A stretch of DNA of 55,413 nucleotides from an uncultured Gammaproteobacteria bacterium (GTDB lineage: Bacteria > Patescibacteriota > Microgenomatia > Levybacterales > JACOYD01): positions 48,283 through 103,695 of the forward strand of contig CAYUJR010000001.1 in the NCBI GenBank assembly GCA_964445095.1, read 5' to 3'. Numbering within the stretch: the first letter of the stretch is position 1; the number at the start of each line of letters is the position of its first letter. The position numbers and the translations under genes were made by a program. The notes beneath the pieces are model-generated. The model made no database searches, was not told the origin of the DNA, and saw nothing but the letters and a program-made list of their open reading frames with translations. Shown in pieces: positions 48,126-53,632 of this stretch.

Positions 48126-50415
48126 AGATAAATTCTATCTGGCTTTCTCCGGCTGGAATAACAACTGCCCGAAAGGTGTAATCTGCTCTATAAATTTTAA
48201 CATCTTCTCCGCTTAATTTTGCTTTCCAACCGGGGTAAAAATTATCCGAGAGAAATAAAAATGCTGGACTGTCGGTCTTGACGGCAATAATAATTTTATT
48301 CGGGGTATATGAAATAATTTGGGCGCTTCCGCTGCCTTCTTTGCTTGGCGCAAAAAAAGGCTTATCTTCTACAATCAATGTCTTTCTAAAATCAAAGCTA
48401 TCGCTGTAAAATCTTTTGATTATTTCCCGATCGCTTTTTATCACCTCAAAATTATAAAAGAGTAAAGCTCTGGGTAATGCTAGATTATTTTTAAATAGCT
48501 GATGCTTGCTGTCTTGATAAGCCAATGTATATCTTTTTGGGTCCTGCCAAACCGGATAAGCCCAGCCGGCATTAGTATCGCTGATAGGATTAAAAATTAA
48601 AGAAACTCCTAATAGGTCTAACGCTCGGTCGGTAAATCTTCCCCGCCTATCAAGGTTTACCACCGACCGTTCTCCCTGTAAAAATTCTCCTGTACCCGCG
48701 CTTCTTATAAATTCGCCATAGCGGTTGACGTATAAAGGATCATAGCCTTCAATAATAGGAAAACCGTAATAAGAAGAAACCCCTGCTCCAATATTGCCAA
48801 AGATTCGCCCGCCCCCAATATTTTTTTTAATCGCCTCAATAACAGGAACCGGCGGATAAACTAATCCTTTTGGATCAAACGGCATCCATTTTTGGGCGAA
48901 GCGAAGGCTGTCGAAAGAAGCAACAAGTAACAGGTAACAAGTAATAAGTAATATAAATTTTTTATTAATTTTTAAAAGACCAACAAAAAATACTACGCCT
49001 ATAAATAATACTGTCGGCAAGACTAAATTTCTTTTTGCCACAATCAGCCATTCCTGTGGATATACTTTTCCAAAAAACAGCAGAAGCCAAATGGAAGCAA
49101 AAAAAACTGCCACCAAGGTAAATAATGCTATCATCTTTTTATTTTCCCTAACATCTCTAATTCCCCTAATTTCCCCAATGAGCCGGTCAAAACCAAATCC
49201 CGCCAGAACCGCCAGCGAAAAACTAAACAAAACAATAATTCTTGATTGAGCGCTTGTTGATAAAACAGGAATTTTTAAGGAGACTATAATATTAGAAATA
49301 TTAAGATTAATAGGAATATTATAAATATAAAAAACTGGGATGTATACAGCAAGAAGAAGTGATACTACTGCTAAAATTACAAAAAATGATATTTTCTTTA
49401 TCTGTATTCTCAAAATTGCATAAATGGCAAGCATTAATGGGATGATGCCGATAAACGACGCCCATTCGGCATAATGCCCAAACCAGTCATTTCGAGTAAC
49501 AGGATTACCAAAAAAATCCGGCGAAAAAACAGTAACAAGATATTGAAAAGGTATCGCCTCGCCTACTTGAAAAAGCTCACTGCGAACCGATTGACCATAA
49601 AGTCTTATCGATGGTAAGAGCTGTGGCAGTGAAAGAACTAAACCTAATAAAATAGCAACTAGCAATTGGTAATTAGCAATTAGTTTTTTAACCGATAGTG
49701 CATTAAAAAAAGTATAAGCAATAATTGCTACTAGAAAATATAAACCTATTTGAAAATGACCGGAGAAAAACGACAGAGGAATTGTCAGAGCAAGTAGTGC
49801 CAAAAAACGTATTTGTCTTTGCTGATAATATTTTTCAATAGCAAAAAGAGCAAGCGGCAAATATAAAATTGCAAAAGCCAATGTTCCATAAGCCATCCAT
49901 ACCACGATGAAGCCACAGAACATAAAACTAATACTACCAATCAGTAATCCCGTAGCGCTTATCTTAAGCGTTTTTAAAAACATCGACATGAAAATTCCTG
50001 CTAATAATGGTTGTAGAAGAATTAAAATGCTCCAGGCATCGATAAAGGGAAGTAAGGAAAAAAGAGCATTTCCAGGGGAAAGTACCGCCGATTGAAAATT
50101 GGCTAAATGAGGATTGCCGGAAAAACTATATGGGTTCCATAAGGGTATCTGACCGTTTTTCCACGTTTCGATAGTAAATTTCTTCCAGGGGTATATTTGG
50201 GTATGAACATCAGGCATGGCATTATTTTTGACCGGTCCCCAAAATTGTTCATAATGACTCCAGGGGGCAAAAAAATTTACCTGATAAGTCGAGGCATAGG
50301 GAACTTTTTCCTTAATAAAATAAGGACTGGCAAAAATAAACCAAAGCCCGAAGATAAAAATAATCGGCCAGAATCTTAATAAAAAGTTTTTAGTTTTAAG
50401 TTGTAGTTTTGACAT
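48106..50415 (-). CDS. YfhO-family GT-C membrane glycosyltransferase, paralog D of 4
   Basis: FFAPWSHY..IYPWKKF..NGQIPLWNPYSFSGNPH. C-terminal LSDNFYPGWKAKLSGEDVKIYRADYTFRAVVIPAGE. Start set to MSKLQLKTKN (ATG 50415). The track extension to 50502 would overlap the upstream GT2 by 107 nt. Confidence 0.8.
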   Translation of the reverse strand: MSKLQLKTKNFLLRFWPIIFIFGLWFIFASPYFIKEKVPYASTYQVNFFAPWSHYEQFWGPVKNNAMPDVHTQIYPWKKFTIETWKNGQIPLWNPYSFSGNPHLANFQSAVLSPGNALFSLLPFIDAWSILILLQPLLAGIFMSMFLKTLKISATGLLIGSISFMFCGFIVVWMAYGTLAFAILYLPLALFAIEKYYQQRQIRFLALLALTIPLSFFSGHFQIGLYFLVAIIAYTFFNALSVKKLIANYQLLVAILLGLVLSLPQLLPSIRLYGQSVRSELFQVGEAIPFQYLVTVFSPDFFGNPVTRNDWFGHYAEWASFIGIIPLMLAIYAILRIQIKKISFFVILAVVSLLLAVYIPVFYIYNIPINLNISNIIVSLKIPVLSTSAQSRIIVLFSFSLAVLAGFGFDRLIGEIRGIRDVRENKKMIALFTLVAVFFASIWLLLFFGKVYPQEWLIVAKRNLVLPTVLFIGVVFFVGLLKINKKFILLITCYLLLVASFDSLRFAQKWMPFDPKGLVYPPVPVIEAIKKNIGGGRIFGNIGAGVSSYYGFPIIEGYDPLYVNRYGEFIRSAGTGEFLQGERSVVNLDRRGRFTDRALDLLGVSLIFNPISDTNAGWAYPVWQDPKRYTLAYQDSKHQLFKNNLALPRALLFYNFEVIKSDREIIKRFYSDSFDFRKTLIVEDKPFFAPSKEGSGSAQIISYTPNKIIIAVKTDSPAFLFLSDNFYPGWKAKLSGEDVKIYRADYTFRAVVIPAGESQIEFIYENWYL
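48920..48954. repeat. Imperfect GTAACAA-type heptamer array in YfhO-like paralog D
   Basis: gcaacaa gtaacag gtaacaa gtaataa gtaatat. Encodes a TM segment, LLITCYLLLVA. Confidence 0.7.
49654..49688. repeat. Imperfect AGCAAYT-type heptamer array in YfhO-like paralog D
   Basis: agcaact agcaatt ggtaatt agcaatt agttttt. Encodes LIANYQLLVAI. Confidence 0.7.
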
Positions 50416-51175
50416 TTGAGTTTTGCGATTTGAGATTATTCTGTAACTCCCAAAGTCTGGCATAAGTAATAAACATACTAAAAGCTTGATATATACTCTC
50501 AATTAGTCCTACCGTCCCCGCCTTCCAACCGCTCTGTCTTATATACGAATCAAAAAATGCGGTAAGCATTACACGCGGAAACCGCCACCATGTCATTTGA
50601 GGATGTCCCGCTTTTAGCCGTAGCTCTGCCTCAATTTTAGACCACTCGATAGTTTTCTCAACCATTGAAGTAAAGTCTTTGTGCGTATAATGCAGTAGGA
50701 ATCCATCAAGCTCCCCTATTTTTCCATCAATAACCGGACTTTCGTGAAGCTGCCCTCGCCATTCTTTTAATGCATCTTTTCTAAAAAGCCGCTCTATTTT
50801 CTCAATATACGGCCACTCGTGCTTTCCGAAGTAGAAATTTTTCCTGCTAATCCTAAAAACAGCATAATTTTGATATTTGATATTTGATATTTGATATTTG
50901 ATATTGTCGCGAAGCGACGTTGTTATCCGTTCATCCGTATCCACATACAAAACCCATTCCCCTTTTGCCTCTTGTAATCCCTTATTTCTCAACTGGGCAA
51001 AACTGTCTGTATTAATAGTCAAGACTTTAGCCTTAAGATATTTAGCAACTTCTGCCGTCCTATCTGTCGACGAGTTATCAACTACAATTACCTCATCGGC
51101 AAAATCAACAGAGGTGATGGCATCAGCAATCTCACCCTCCGCATTTTTAGCAATAATAATAATTGACAGCTTCAT
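50396..51175 (-). CDS. Glycosyltransferase family 2 carrying a perfect heptanucleotide tract
   Basis: LSIIIIAKNAEGEI, VVDNSSTDRTAEVAK, VDTDE and RISRKNFYFGKHEWPY. Paralog of 21045..21800 and 52724..53632. Confidence 0.8.
   Translation of the reverse strand: MKLSIIIIAKNAEGEIADAITSVDFADEVIVVDNSSTDRTAEVAKYLKAKVLTINTDSFAQLRNKGLQEAKGEWVLYVDTDERITTSLRDNIKYQISNIKYQNYAVFRISRKNFYFGKHEWPYIEKIERLFRKDALKEWRGQLHESPVIDGKIGELDGFLLHYTHKDFTSMVEKTIEWSKIEAELRLKAGHPQMTWWRFPRVMLTAFFDSYIRQSGWKAGTVGLIESIYQAFSMFITYARLWELQNNLKSQNSNVKTTT
50414..50437. repeat. Imperfect ATTTGAG-family heptamers at the GT2 stop / YfhO start overlap
   Basis: atttgag ttttgcg atttgag att. Covers the C-terminal tail of 50396..51175 and lies immediately upstream of, and overlaps, the YfhO-like D start codon (ATG 50415). 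Confidence 0.6.
50869..50906. repeat. Perfect heptanucleotide tandem repeat (TTTGATA) about 5.4 copies, in-frame in a GT2 gene
   Basis: Five exact units at 50869-50903 plus a partial ttg. The coding-sense unit ATATCAA encodes NIKYQISNIKYQ. Confidence 0.95.
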
Positions 51176-52080
51176 AACTCGTAGCTTCCTCTACCAAATT
51201 TTCCCAGGTAAAAATCCAGCGCTCCTCTTTTTTGCCATAATCTACCATTGATTAATAACCCGAAACTTTCTCGCAAAAGTGCTAGTTTTGACCGAAGCGG
51301 TGCATATCTTATGCCAAAAAGCAACCGGTTTCTGGTAATGTAATAATCTTGAAGTGAGGAACCAGAACCGCCTGCTGAACCGGCGTTTTTGTGCCAGAGC
51401 ACTGCTCTTGGATTAAATACTATTTTAAAACCGGCTTTTTTTGCTCGAAGAGAAAAATCACTGTCTTCATAATACAAAAAATATTTATTGTCTAACATCC
51501 CAATTCTTTCAAAAACGCTTCTTTTAATCATCATGCAACACCCACTGGCGAAATCCGTTTCTTCTTCTTTTTCATATTGACCACCGTCAACATCGTCAAC
51601 GCCCCGGTGTCTACCAACGACATTTTCCCAATCAACTATTCCTCCCGCATACCAAATAACTTTCCCCAAATCTTCCTTTTTATATCTGTCTTTATGAAAT
51701 TCAAAACTAGGGGCAAAGTAAATTTTGGGGGCCACCATTCCGATCTTTTTGTCCGATTCTGCAACTTTAACAAGTTCGTTAACCAAATTTTTATCAACAA
51801 CAGTATCATTATTCAGAATAATAACGTACTCTGCCCCATTTCTTAGTGCATAATTAATGCCAACATTATTCCCTCCCGCAAATCCTAAATTCTCTTTATT
51901 TCTAATAATCTCTACCCTTTCCCCTTTACCCTCTACCCTAAACTCTTCTTTTGATCCGTTATCAACAACAATAGTTTGTAGTTTGTAGTTTGTAGTTTGT
52001 AGTTGACTAAGGCTCTCTAGGCACTCCAGTGTATCTCTAGTCCCATTCCAATGGAGGATGATTATAAAAACAGTTTTCAT
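51172..52080 (-). CDS. Glycosyltransferase family 2 (WbbL/rhamnosyltransferase-like class) carrying a perfect heptanucleotide tract
   Basis: VFIIILHWNGTRDTLECLESL, VVDNGS, NLGFAGGNNVG, ILNNDT and FLYYEDSDFSLR. Confidence 0.85.
   Translation of the reverse strand: MKTVFIIILHWNGTRDTLECLESLSQLQTTNYKLQTIVVDNGSKEEFRVEGKGERVEIIRNKENLGFAGGNNVGINYALRNGAEYVIILNNDTVVDKNLVNELVKVAESDKKIGMVAPKIYFAPSFEFHKDRYKKEDLGKVIWYAGGIVDWENVVGRHRGVDDVDGGQYEKEEETDFASGCCMMIKRSVFERIGMLDNKYFLYYEDSDFSLRAKKAGFKIVFNPRAVLWHKNAGSAGGSGSSLQDYYITRNRLLFGIRYAPLRSKLALLRESFGLLINGRLWQKRGALDFYLGKFGRGSYEL
51972..52004. repeat. Perfect heptanucleotide tandem repeat (TAGTTTG) about 4.7 copies, in-frame in a GT2 gene
   Basis: Four exact units at 51972-51999 plus a partial tagtt. 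The coding-sense unit CAAACTA encodes QLQTTNYKLQT. Confidence 0.95.
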
Positions 52081-52727
52081 TCCGTAGTAATTTTTACTCT
52101 GGCTTGAATAAGTTGAGTGCGGGCTCCTAATTGAGTTTTCATTTGCACCCGATAAAGCTTGTTGCCACTACCTAATCCCAAGGCAGTAGAAATCAATAGC
52201 TTTGGCTCTCCTCCTTCTATAGAAAGCTCCGAGGGCCATACCATATTTTTATCGCTCACATTATATAGTCTGACATAAGTTGTCTGATTACCGGTGGGAG
52301 TATAAAGCGAGGCTTCAAAAACTGCACTTTTTATCCGACCGTATTTAGTATTATCTATGTAGGTCTCAACTCCTGGAACATCTGTCCAATCCTTGGCTGT
52401 ACTCTCGCCTGAACCTAGCGATATCAAAAATTCCCGAGCCGGCCCAGCTACTTGACTGCCAATCGCACTAGTATTTTGCGCAGGAACAATATTAATAGAT
52501 GCTGTAGCTATTTTTACTATCTCTTCTACTTCCTGCCGAGTAATACCTATAGCATCAGCAGAAGCTGTCGCTACCGACTGCGATCCTCGTTCCACAAAAA
52601 CAACTTGCTTTTCCGGTAGATTTTTTTCCTGAACAAAAAATTTATAATCTAATAATATTAGATTACCTAAAGCGAGCAGTAAAATTATTCCCGCTAAAGC
52701 CAGTAGAACCCTTCGTAGTTTAGTCAT
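52077..52727 (-). CDS. Membrane-anchored extracytoplasmic protein of unknown function
   Basis: Start set to MTKLRRVLLALAGIILLLALGNLILL (ATGA overlap with the upstream stop at 52724). It has a single N-terminal TM anchor followed by a beta-rich soluble domain. No recognisable motif. Confidence 0.5.
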   Translation of the reverse strand: MTKLRRVLLALAGIILLLALGNLILLDYKFFVQEKNLPEKQVVFVERGSQSVATASADAIGITRQEVEEIVKIATASINIVPAQNTSAIGSQVAGPAREFLISLGSGESTAKDWTDVPGVETYIDNTKYGRIKSAVFEASLYTPTGNQTTYVRLYNVSDKNMVWPSELSIEGGEPKLLISTALGLGSGNKLYRVQMKTQLGARTQLIQARVKITTE

Positions 52728-53632
52728 AAAAACTTCCTTTGCAGTTTTAATAATAATTTTTCCCAAATATTTTTACTGTCATTTAAGCGTGCTGTGATTA
52801 GCCAAAAATTTAACTCTCCTCTTAGCTTTTTTGACTCATTCTGGAGCGAATTGAGGGAAATTTTGTCCGTCGGCGCAAAATTTTTCTTCTCCCAAACAGT
52901 CACAAAAACAATCAAATGATAAAAGGCCATTAGTAGGCTTAAAACTAGTCCATGAAGTCCATCTTTATAACCTTGTTGGGCAAAAAAACGATTAATGAAC
53001 TCTTTGGCCGGCATCCTAATGCTATCCAAGTAGTTGAATTGATAATTATTTCTTAGCAGGTTTTGAGCTTCGTTGGGAGTATAAATATAGGTAAGTTTAT
53101 TTAAAAATTGACTGACATTATCGTAGTTTAAGTGCTCGAGATGGTTAGTCAATTTTTCTGTGAGGCCGGCAACTTCTACCATTTCATGAACATGCCGTTC
53201 GGGAAACTTACCCTTGCCTTTCTTGAATAACCTTAATTGATAGTCCGGATACCAACCGGTGTGACGCATCCATTTGCCAAAAATGATATTTTTTCTGGGA
53301 ATCCAGTAGCCACTGATGGCTGATGGCTGATGGCTGATGGCTAAGAGTATTTCTTTTTTAAGCTCTGGTGTAACTCGTTCATCCGCATCCAAACTAAGAA
53401 TCCAATCTCCCGTGGCTTTAGTAAATCCGAAGTTCTTATTGACATTAAGCATTGGGTTGTTGGACCGGGCATAGATTCTTGAGGTGTATTCTTTGGCAAT
53501 TTGGGCGGTTTTATCGGTTGAGGAGTTATCAATAAATATTATCTCATCCGCCAGCTGGCAGATTGACCCTAGACAATCGCGAATCTTGTCTTCCTCATTA
53601 AAAGCAGAGATAACTACCGACAGTCCTATCAC
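52724..53632 (-). CDS. Glycosyltransferase family 2 carrying a perfect heptanucleotide tract
   Basis: GTG start. LSVVISAFNEEDKI, FIDNSSTDKTAQIAK, SLDADE and GYWIPRKNIIFGKWMRHTGWYPDY. Confidence 0.8.
   Translation of the reverse strand: MIGLSVVISAFNEEDKIRDCLGSICQLADEIIFIDNSSTDKTAQIAKEYTSRIYARSNNPMLNVNKNFGFTKATGDWILSLDADERVTPELKKEILLAISHQPSAISGYWIPRKNIIFGKWMRHTGWYPDYQLRLFKKGKGKFPERHVHEMVEVAGLTEKLTNHLEHLNYDNVSQFLNKLTYIYTPNEAQNLLRNNYQFNYLDSIRMPAKEFINRFFAQQGYKDGLHGLVLSLLMAFYHLIVFVTVWEKKNFAPTDKISLNSLQNESKKLRGELNFWLITARLNDSKNIWEKLLLKLQRKFL
53313..53342. repeat. Perfect heptanucleotide tandem repeat (CTGATGG) about 4.3 copies, in-frame in a GT2 gene
   Basis: Four exact units at 53313-53340 plus a partial ct. 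The coding-sense unit CCATCAG encodes ISHQPSAIS. Confidence 0.95.

Follow-up and report, generated by a model that had tools for sequence, protein, structure and literature searches.

The window analysed here is a stretch of 55,413 nucleotides (nt) from an uncultured bacterium of the candidate phyla radiation (CPR; Patescibacteriota, Microgenomatia, Levybacterales), positions 48,283 to 103,695 of contig CAYUJR010000001.1 (assembly GCA_964445095.1). On its minus strand, at 51172-52080, lies a gene for a GT2 glycosyltransferase of 302 amino acids (aa), and near the 5' end of this gene a perfect heptanucleotide tract, (TAGTTTG)x4.7, is present at 51972-52004. The plus strand reads TAGTTTGTAGTTTGTAGTTTGTAGTTTGTAGTT, four copies of TAGTTTG followed by TAGTT; these 33 nt have a period of 7 without a mismatch, and Tandem Repeats Finder (TRF) gave a score of 66 with 100% matches. 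In the coding sense the tract is (CAAACTA)n and occupies nt 77-109 of the gene, 76 nt inside the open reading frame (ORF). Codons 26-36 encode the peptide QLQTTNYKLQT, which directly precedes IVVDNGS. A sequence-only reading of this DNA had described the tract in this position and had proposed it as a phase switch; both the sequence and TRF confirmed the description. The region can be divided into five heptamer slots (CAACTAC, three times AAACTAC, and AAACTAT; 51971-52005, minus strand, gene nt 76-110) in a register common to all orthologues examined. The DNGS codons (D40-S43, 51952-51963, minus strand), at the nucleotide-sugar-binding end of strand beta2, begin 8 nt 3' of the tract in the coding sense and 7 nt past the last slot.

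The 302-aa protein scored 64.1 bits against PF00535 (cutoff 23.3, E = 2e-17) and its beta1-alpha1-beta2 segment leads into a D-x-(G/A)-S site, which identifies it as a GT2 enzyme with a GT-A fold. Its PDB matches were GlfT2-like. Against TIGR01556, a rhamnosyltransferase subfamily of NCBIfam, it reached 92 bits where membership requires 200.55. By sequence, the enzyme resembles rhamnosyl- and galactofuranosyl-transferases, with scores under the cutoffs of such families. An AlphaFold2 model built on 37 orthologues had a predicted local distance difference test score (pLDDT) of 92.5 and showed beta1 at residues 2-10, alpha1 at 14-24, a loop at 25-31 and beta2 at 32-41, the last two with pLDDT 90-94. 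According to this model, the tract is predicted to encode the loop after alpha1 and the first half of the beta2 strand that bears the Asp of DNGS, an ordered part of the core. This placement would explain the fixed length of the tract that is reported below.

Changes in unit number were simulated. Gain of one unit or loss of two gave ...NYCC followed by TGA, and loss of one or gain of two gave ...KLLLLITDQKKSLG followed by TAG; with all four changes translation ended at residue 35-54, and only a change of three units left the frame open. The predictions of the sequence-only reading, early stops in both shifted frames (TGA and TAG) and very early truncation of the enzyme by a one-unit change, were thereby borne out. 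Its description of the gene as coupled by ATGA to both neighbours also agrees with the ORF coordinates: on the minus strand, 4 nt (52077-52080) are shared with the upstream gene for a 229-aa protein (52077-52766) and 4 nt (51172-51175) with the downstream GT2 gene (50396-51175). The tract region showed no significant RNA structure (fold z = -0.02) and no match in an Rfam search, and pattern scans for promoters and terminators at the tract gave background-level signal only.

The closest proteins to this GT2 enzyme were at most 78% identical, and the named matches were mostly from Levybacteria or Patescibacteria. For 11 orthologous loci with 57-78% identity, the DNA was compared with the slots anchored on the GAT codon of DNGS. 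All 11 had five 7-nt slots that share a register, and their Asp is encoded at codon 39-41; in a larger set of 120 orthologous proteins this active-site Asp was at the standard position in 116. The contents of the slots differed from lineage to lineage. Near-perfect arrays were present in the window and in L208, L124, L125 and L134, which have four copies of AAATTAC, AAGTTAC, CAATTGT and AAACTGG, respectively, each followed by a variant last slot. With AAACTAC in the window, five near-perfect arrays therefore have five units. In L123 the array is partly uniform (AATACAC, three times AAATTAC, and AAATATT), and in L121, L206, L210, L207 and L209 it has decayed to slots of the form NAACTAN or AAGTTAY. 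The units differ from each other by 1-4 substitutions in one register, and 4-16 parallel substitutions separate one perfect array from another. Mean unit identity was 0.82 inside arrays versus 0.62 for the equivalent slot across orthologues. A similar signal was visible in the proteins: among 106 distinct orthologue segments, residue identity at lag 7 in two variable pairs was 25% and 29% versus 11% and 13% expected, which was above all 1000 shuffles. Lags 5, 6 and 9 had no excess, and one lag-8 pair did.

The sequence-only reading had suggested a comparison of unit number among orthologues. In this comparison the number of slots proved invariant (five in 11 out of 11), and similar peptides were encoded by repetitive codons that each orthologue has of its own, not by non-repetitive ones. 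A tblastn match of the 302-aa query to the orthologue L128 (639-1840) spans 1202 nt, seemingly with an extra segment of ~300 nt or a frame change past the N-terminus.

Homologues with less than ~55% identity mostly have no array. An exception is L013 (Daviesbacteria, JAQUSJ010000001.1), a GT2 homologue with 54% identity whose protein of ~600 aa is fused to a second GT2 domain, and which has the window's own unit in the matching five slots. The slots of L013 and the window are 94% identical, compared to 57% for the 75 nt upstream. In array-less homologues of the subfamily, the spacing between Cys20 and Asp40 is equal to that in array-bearing ones, which indicates that the array replaces native sequence and is not an insertion. 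An origin at this site by insertion of three extra units into a seed was ruled out by the same equal spacing. Taken together, the fixed slots, the lineage-specific units and the contrast between slots and flank in L013 point to concerted evolution at fixed length, in which the tract turns over.

The arrays might instead be static relics of a one-off slippage expansion, now decaying and having neither dynamics nor functional consequence. The decayed arrays in the close orthologues L121, L206, L210 and L207 would fit this, as would the fixed length and the absence of polymorphism in the k=31 contigs described below. However, perfect arrays with different units occupy shared slots in five lineages, and independent decay cannot yield five different perfect units, because 4-16 parallel changes would be needed. 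The 94% identity of the L013 slots next to a flank with 57% likewise counts against a relic, and we regard this explanation as very unlikely.

A second position in the gene has arrays as well. At 51913-51939 (minus strand), in the loop after DNGS, the window contains an imperfect array, TACCCTT x3.9 with 85% matches, which reads AGGGTAG/AGGGTAA in the coding sense and encodes RVEGKGERVE. We refer to this position as site 2 and to that of the perfect tract as site 1. In the 120 orthologous proteins, a search was made for stretches of 8 aa or more that some (7-nt unit)n could encode; a chance match has a probability of ~6e-7 per position. This yielded 28 stretches in 26 of the 120 proteins; site 1 had such a stretch in 5 proteins and site 2, located 6-24 residues past the Asp of DNGS, in 23. 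No heptamer-encodable peptide was found outside sites 1 and 2 in this screen. Arrays verified at the DNA level at site 2 were (ATTCAAG)x5, (ATTCAAA)x4.7 and (CAATTTC)x4.4. Peptides at site 2 include KFKVQSSKFKV, FQFPISNFQF and FKIQDSRFKIQD, each of which could be encoded by a unit of its own, and this hotspot is more frequent than site 1.

To include N-terminally frameshifted alleles, a census of ON and OFF alleles was done by a protein search with residues 60-302 only, in which such alleles would rank equally, and the best 120 matches were inspected. Of these region-scored orthologues, 118 were full length. A short protein that starts at LESL comes from a contig of 1.1 kb and was read as cut by the contig end. 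Another protein, P0122 (268 aa, starting at MVDNGS), was considered as an OFF allele and rejected, since an in-frame TAA occupies its conserved Ser codon and an array is absent, so that no slip is involved. In the orthologue L211 (1972-2082), which has no heptamer array, the Ser of the conserved CL(E/K)S is replaced by an in-frame TAA at about codon 23, and the gene call accordingly starts at the Val of VVDNGS. This TAA could be a sequencing error or a recoded stop, or it could mark a nonsense pseudogene. Among the ~120 orthologues there was no frameshifted allele, also when the N-terminus was left unscored, and every array-bearing orthologue was in frame. In a strain that is ~9% diverged (26 differences over 284 nt), the tract is covered without a gap and has equal length.

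In k=31 Logan contigs from 10 public runs that contain the locus, contigs from the left reach 51998-52001 and those from the right begin at 51975, and unit number is not phased in them. For the 30-nt sister array at 53313, no allele of plus or minus 7 nt was listed, and contigs also break at the edge of that array. The breaks inside the tract are what an assembly or sequencing artefact might produce. Against this, the two junctions, each with flank and 27-30 nt of tract, are free of mismatches in independent runs from two studies, the tract is spanned in the divergent strain, and orthologues from unrelated assemblies have arrays in matching slots with the frame intact. An artefact can practically be dismissed.

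The surroundings of the tract are those in which a phase switch would be looked for. Almost all of the window, which has 47 ORFs, all but three of them on the minus strand and many joined by 4-nt overlaps, is taken up by one mostly unidirectional envelope-glycan cluster. It encodes sugar-nucleotide enzymes, glycosyltransferases of the types GT1, GT2 and GT4, several PMT_2/GT39-like proteins, YfhO, PTPS-related membrane proteins and flippases. Orthologous clusters are syntenic with the window. In the closest of these an MmeI-like type IIG restriction-modification gene (N6_Mtase, MmeI_Mtase, Eco57I; L121, 7646-10357) lies between the GT2 pair and the YfhO gene, and the window is without such a gene. 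Perfect tandem repeats of at least three units with periods of 4-12 were found in the whole window at period 7 only, three times (50869, 51972 and 53313), with 0 at periods 4-6 and 8-12; the expectation from 20 dinucleotide shuffles of the 55.4-kb window (36.6% G + C) was 0.0, so heptanucleotide simple sequence repeats (SSRs) are in excess. All three arrays sit in GT2 genes, within 2.5 kb. The two sister arrays, identified by TRF and period scan on the minus strand, are (TTTGATA)x5.3 in the next GT2 gene (50869-50905) and (CTGATGG)x4.3 in the GT2 gene at 52724-53632 (53313-53342). In runs X2, X3, X5 and X10, contigs of relatives align to the latter gene until the edge of the array at 53312/53313 and then diverge, which makes the (CTGATGG) array a homology boundary between relatives.

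The tract could be a true contingency locus, in which slipped-strand mispairing switches the GT2 gene and, with the tracts in neighbouring GT2 genes, varies the cell-surface glycan, the coupling extending the effect downstream. Consistent with this, a non-triplet repeat is present in the coding region at the 5' end (7-nt unit, codons 26-36), it is perfect, both shifted frames stop early, the gene is ATGA-coupled on both sides, and it is a surface- or environment-facing gene of a glycan cluster with three perfect heptamer tracts in 2.5 kb. Recurrent slippage is implied by the concerted evolution, and neuO provides a precedent for a heptanucleotide switch in a 5' coding region (PMC13001214). However, neuO has 3-53 repeats (commonest 20) and is OFF in 66% of genomes, and proven heptamer switches in general have 8-53 units, where the GT2 tract has 4.7. 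Neither varying unit number nor ON and OFF alleles were observed: slot number is constant across orthologues, none of the ~120 is frameshifted, tract length is equal in the ~9% diverged strain, and the sister tract has no listed plus or minus 7-nt allele although contigs broke at its edge. In addition, identical arrays are present in essential genes, as described below, where switching would be lethal. The mutation rate of SSRs depends on their length, and far lower slippage is expected at 4.7 units. Of the phase switch proposed in the sequence-only reading, the perfect, early, truncating non-triplet tract that turns over was upheld, whereas the fixed slot number, the equal length in the diverged strain, the small number of units, the lack of any frameshifted allele and the arrays in essential genes speak against a switch, and we consider it unlikely.

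The same array is found at many other loci. A 26-mer of the tract was present in more than 120 contigs of species-representative genomes, from CPR lineages, Bacteroidota, Parabeggiatoa, cyanobacteria, Megasphaera and others. In public groundwater metagenomes with the locus, 31-mers of the tract were 10-45x deeper than the flanks and ran into many unrelated flanks, indicating that a very large number of loci in the groundwater community carry (CAAACTA)n arrays. In runs X2-X5 the 31-mers at 51970-52005 reached ~45x flank depth. A copy-number increase of the locus was ruled out as the cause of this spike, as the array also lies at many unrelated loci of the community.

Of 132 array copies examined, 63 are within open frames that span 150 codons or more. 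All of these read as CAAACTA, since the opposite orientation, TAGTTTG, contains TAG in each of its frames; in the window, too, that strand of the tract is closed in all frames. Coding copies were 26-34 nt long in 60 of the 63, and non-coding copies reached 80 nt. In other CPR genomes, 10 host genes of the array were identified with Pfam, comprising the GT2 homologue in L013 and nine housekeeping genes, for MurB, RNase H, FolD, DNA polymerase I (Pol I), phosphoglycerate kinase (Pgk), RF-1, a class-I aminoacyl-tRNA synthetase, KsgA and the NAD-dependent ligase LigA. All of them have the array in frame. The identical in-frame array in housekeeping genes implies that a perfect heptamer tract alone is no mark of a contingency gene in CPR. 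A UvrD/PcrA-like helicase ORF of ~1400 codons on a Nealsonbacteria contig (L009) has (CAAACTA)x4.9 near its C-terminal third; judged by eye, this ORF also seems to have an intein-like insertion.

The MurB genes of L007 (a Wildermuthbacteria metagenome-assembled genome, MAG) and L056 (a Gribaldobacteria MAG) have (CAAACTA)x4.6-4.9 at equivalent codons, encoding GL[VI]I-KLQTTNYKLQ-[IT]N, in unrelated flanking DNA. MurB is thus a second case, and one in an essential gene, in which deeply diverged orthologues have the array at a homologous site.

Such recurrence raises the question whether preferred heptamers are actively written into permissive 35-nt blocks by a dedicated or biased process that leaves the length unchanged; ectopic short-patch conversion from arrays of a favoured unit and a templated step of reiterative synthesis are candidates for it. 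It would account for the window's unit in the 54%-identical L013 where 65-78% identical orthologues do not have it, for the two MurB genes from different CPR lineages with (CAAACTA)n at equivalent codons in unrelated flanks, for the 26-mer in more than 120 contigs of many phyla, for tract words at ~45x flank depth in the source community, and for the array substituting for native sequence of equal length. On the other hand, the loci examined had been chosen for (CAAACTA)n, and the apparent popularity of this unit is biased accordingly; their flanks contained 58 other units (59 in all). Furthermore, the units at GT2 site 1 are 1-4 substitutions apart in one register, as local descent predicts, and no enzyme or template candidate was identified. 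A homology of ~30 nt is also marginal for recombination. We therefore think that unit-specific rewriting is rather improbable.

The explanation that we favour as probable is that the tract is a coding heptamer microsatellite of a type typical of this lineage (CPR, Microgenomates-like), which undergoes concerted evolution while its length is fixed by purifying selection. It would be a latent frameshift hotspot rather than a demonstrated phase switch. The block of five 7-nt slots would be old, as its register and slot number are constant throughout the GT2 orthogroup. Repeated slippage or short-patch conversion among the slots would re-homogenise it again and again and give each lineage its own near-perfect or decayed unit, while purifying selection on the reading frame and the fold would remove every length variant. 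A slip of one unit would produce a null allele and uncouple translation of the downstream GT2 gene. Null alleles should thus arise as a by-product, and there is no sign of their being frequent or put to use. Homogenisation appears to be ongoing in the lineage of the window, and OFF variants are presumably rare. The molecular route may consist of -1/+1 slips or of a length-neutral double slip. Three candidate routes can be envisaged: successive -1/+1 slips via transient null alleles, which a dispensable GT2 gene could tolerate and MurB could not; short-patch conversion or a double slip that leaves the length unchanged; and ectopic copying from other arrays.

Several points weigh against this explanation. 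The k=31 contigs break in the tract, and rare or even moderately frequent subpopulations of off-length alleles may exist. Only six orthologues or homologues with DNA have near-perfect arrays at site 1, so the census of ON alleles is small, and assemblies represent consensus alleles. The gene belongs to a 55-kb cluster for envelope glycans in which adjacent GT2 genes contain another two perfect arrays, a classic setting for contingency loci. That the arrays are related by descent, and did not originate repeatedly in place from homologous seeds, is something that we infer. Finally, unit identity does not track the gene phylogeny, for which simple local homogenisation would require long retention or convergence.

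A more active, unit-biased process keeps a limited chance, since AAACTAC is present in the distant homologue L013 and (CAAACTA)n at equivalent codons of two MurB genes. In a speculative extension, to which we give only modest weight, a length-preserving homogenising process would act in CPR, and perhaps in other phyla, on ~35-nt blocks of five 7-nt slots in protein-coding cores. Double-slip conversion would be one possibility for such a process, and ectopic copying, with other arrays of a favoured unit as the source, another. Arrays would then persist at homologous codons over very deep divergence and change unit in a concerted way, at times converging on one unit, and the process would lead to low-rate reversible null alleles where the gene is a dispensable glycan gene.

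If concerted evolution under purifying selection is the correct explanation, phase variation in CPR should not be called from a perfect non-triplet repeat at the beginning of a surface-glycan gene alone, because like arrays sit in essential genes at fixed length. It would also mean that a 7-nt microsatellite can persist for very long in the ordered core of an enzyme, its unit changing in concert and its length remaining constant. The GT2 tract would thus offer a clean natural system in which slippage or conversion could be measured against selection, and it is relevant to the question why heptamer repeats are in excess in bacteria.

In-frame heptamer arrays in genes of CPR bacteria were not described in the literature searched, and the tract was compared with repeats known from other bacteria. 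One of the closest counterparts is neuO, the capsule O-acetyltransferase gene of the CUS-3 prophage in Escherichia coli K1, with (AAGACTC)n. In both, the 5' coding region of a gene for an enzyme that modifies surface glycans contains repeats of 7 nt, only one of three registers allows full-length translation, and strand slippage is the presumed mutational process. For neuO, 65.6% of 64 complete genomes were OFF, off-length tracts were present in 7% of the cells of one culture, and a longer repeat region raises NeuO activity according to earlier work cited there (PMC13001214). The GT2 tract differs in its 4.7 units and fixed slots, in that no OFF allele was seen, and in encoding part of a conserved fold. 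In Haemophilus influenzae, heptanucleotide SSRs are present in hmw promoters, internally in hmw1A as (AATTTTG)14, and as (AACAACC)n in a TonB-dependent receptor gene; tracts have 8-38 units whose number varies by strain, frameshifted alleles included (PMC2651432). These SSRs share with the GT2 tract the heptanucleotide unit, for some of them a location within an ORF, and the frameshift that follows a change in length, whereas strain-variable unit number and frameshifted alleles were not seen in the GT2 tract.

Among long SSRs of prokaryotes, period-7 repeats are over-represented and scattered over phyla, which Mrazek and co-workers attributed to polymerase slippage, and units divisible by 3 are the likeliest in coding regions, according to a summary of this work (PMC4679880). 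Unlike this pattern, the GT2 tract has a 7-nt unit in frame in a conserved enzyme core, with fixed slots and unit turnover between orthologues. The TAACTGA repeats of marine Beggiatoaceae, cyanobacteria and Bacteroidetes are mainly intergenic, lie ahead of start codons and have been proposed to act in translational regulation (PMC4679880). The GT2 tract, in contrast, is coding and starts 76 nt inside the ORF. What (TAGTTTG)n shares with the TAACTGA repeats is that a single heptamer forms short arrays (2-6 copies for TAACTGA) at many loci with an unexplained spread across phyla, which for (TAGTTTG)n likewise includes Parabeggiatoa, cyanobacteria and Bacteroidota, next to CPR.

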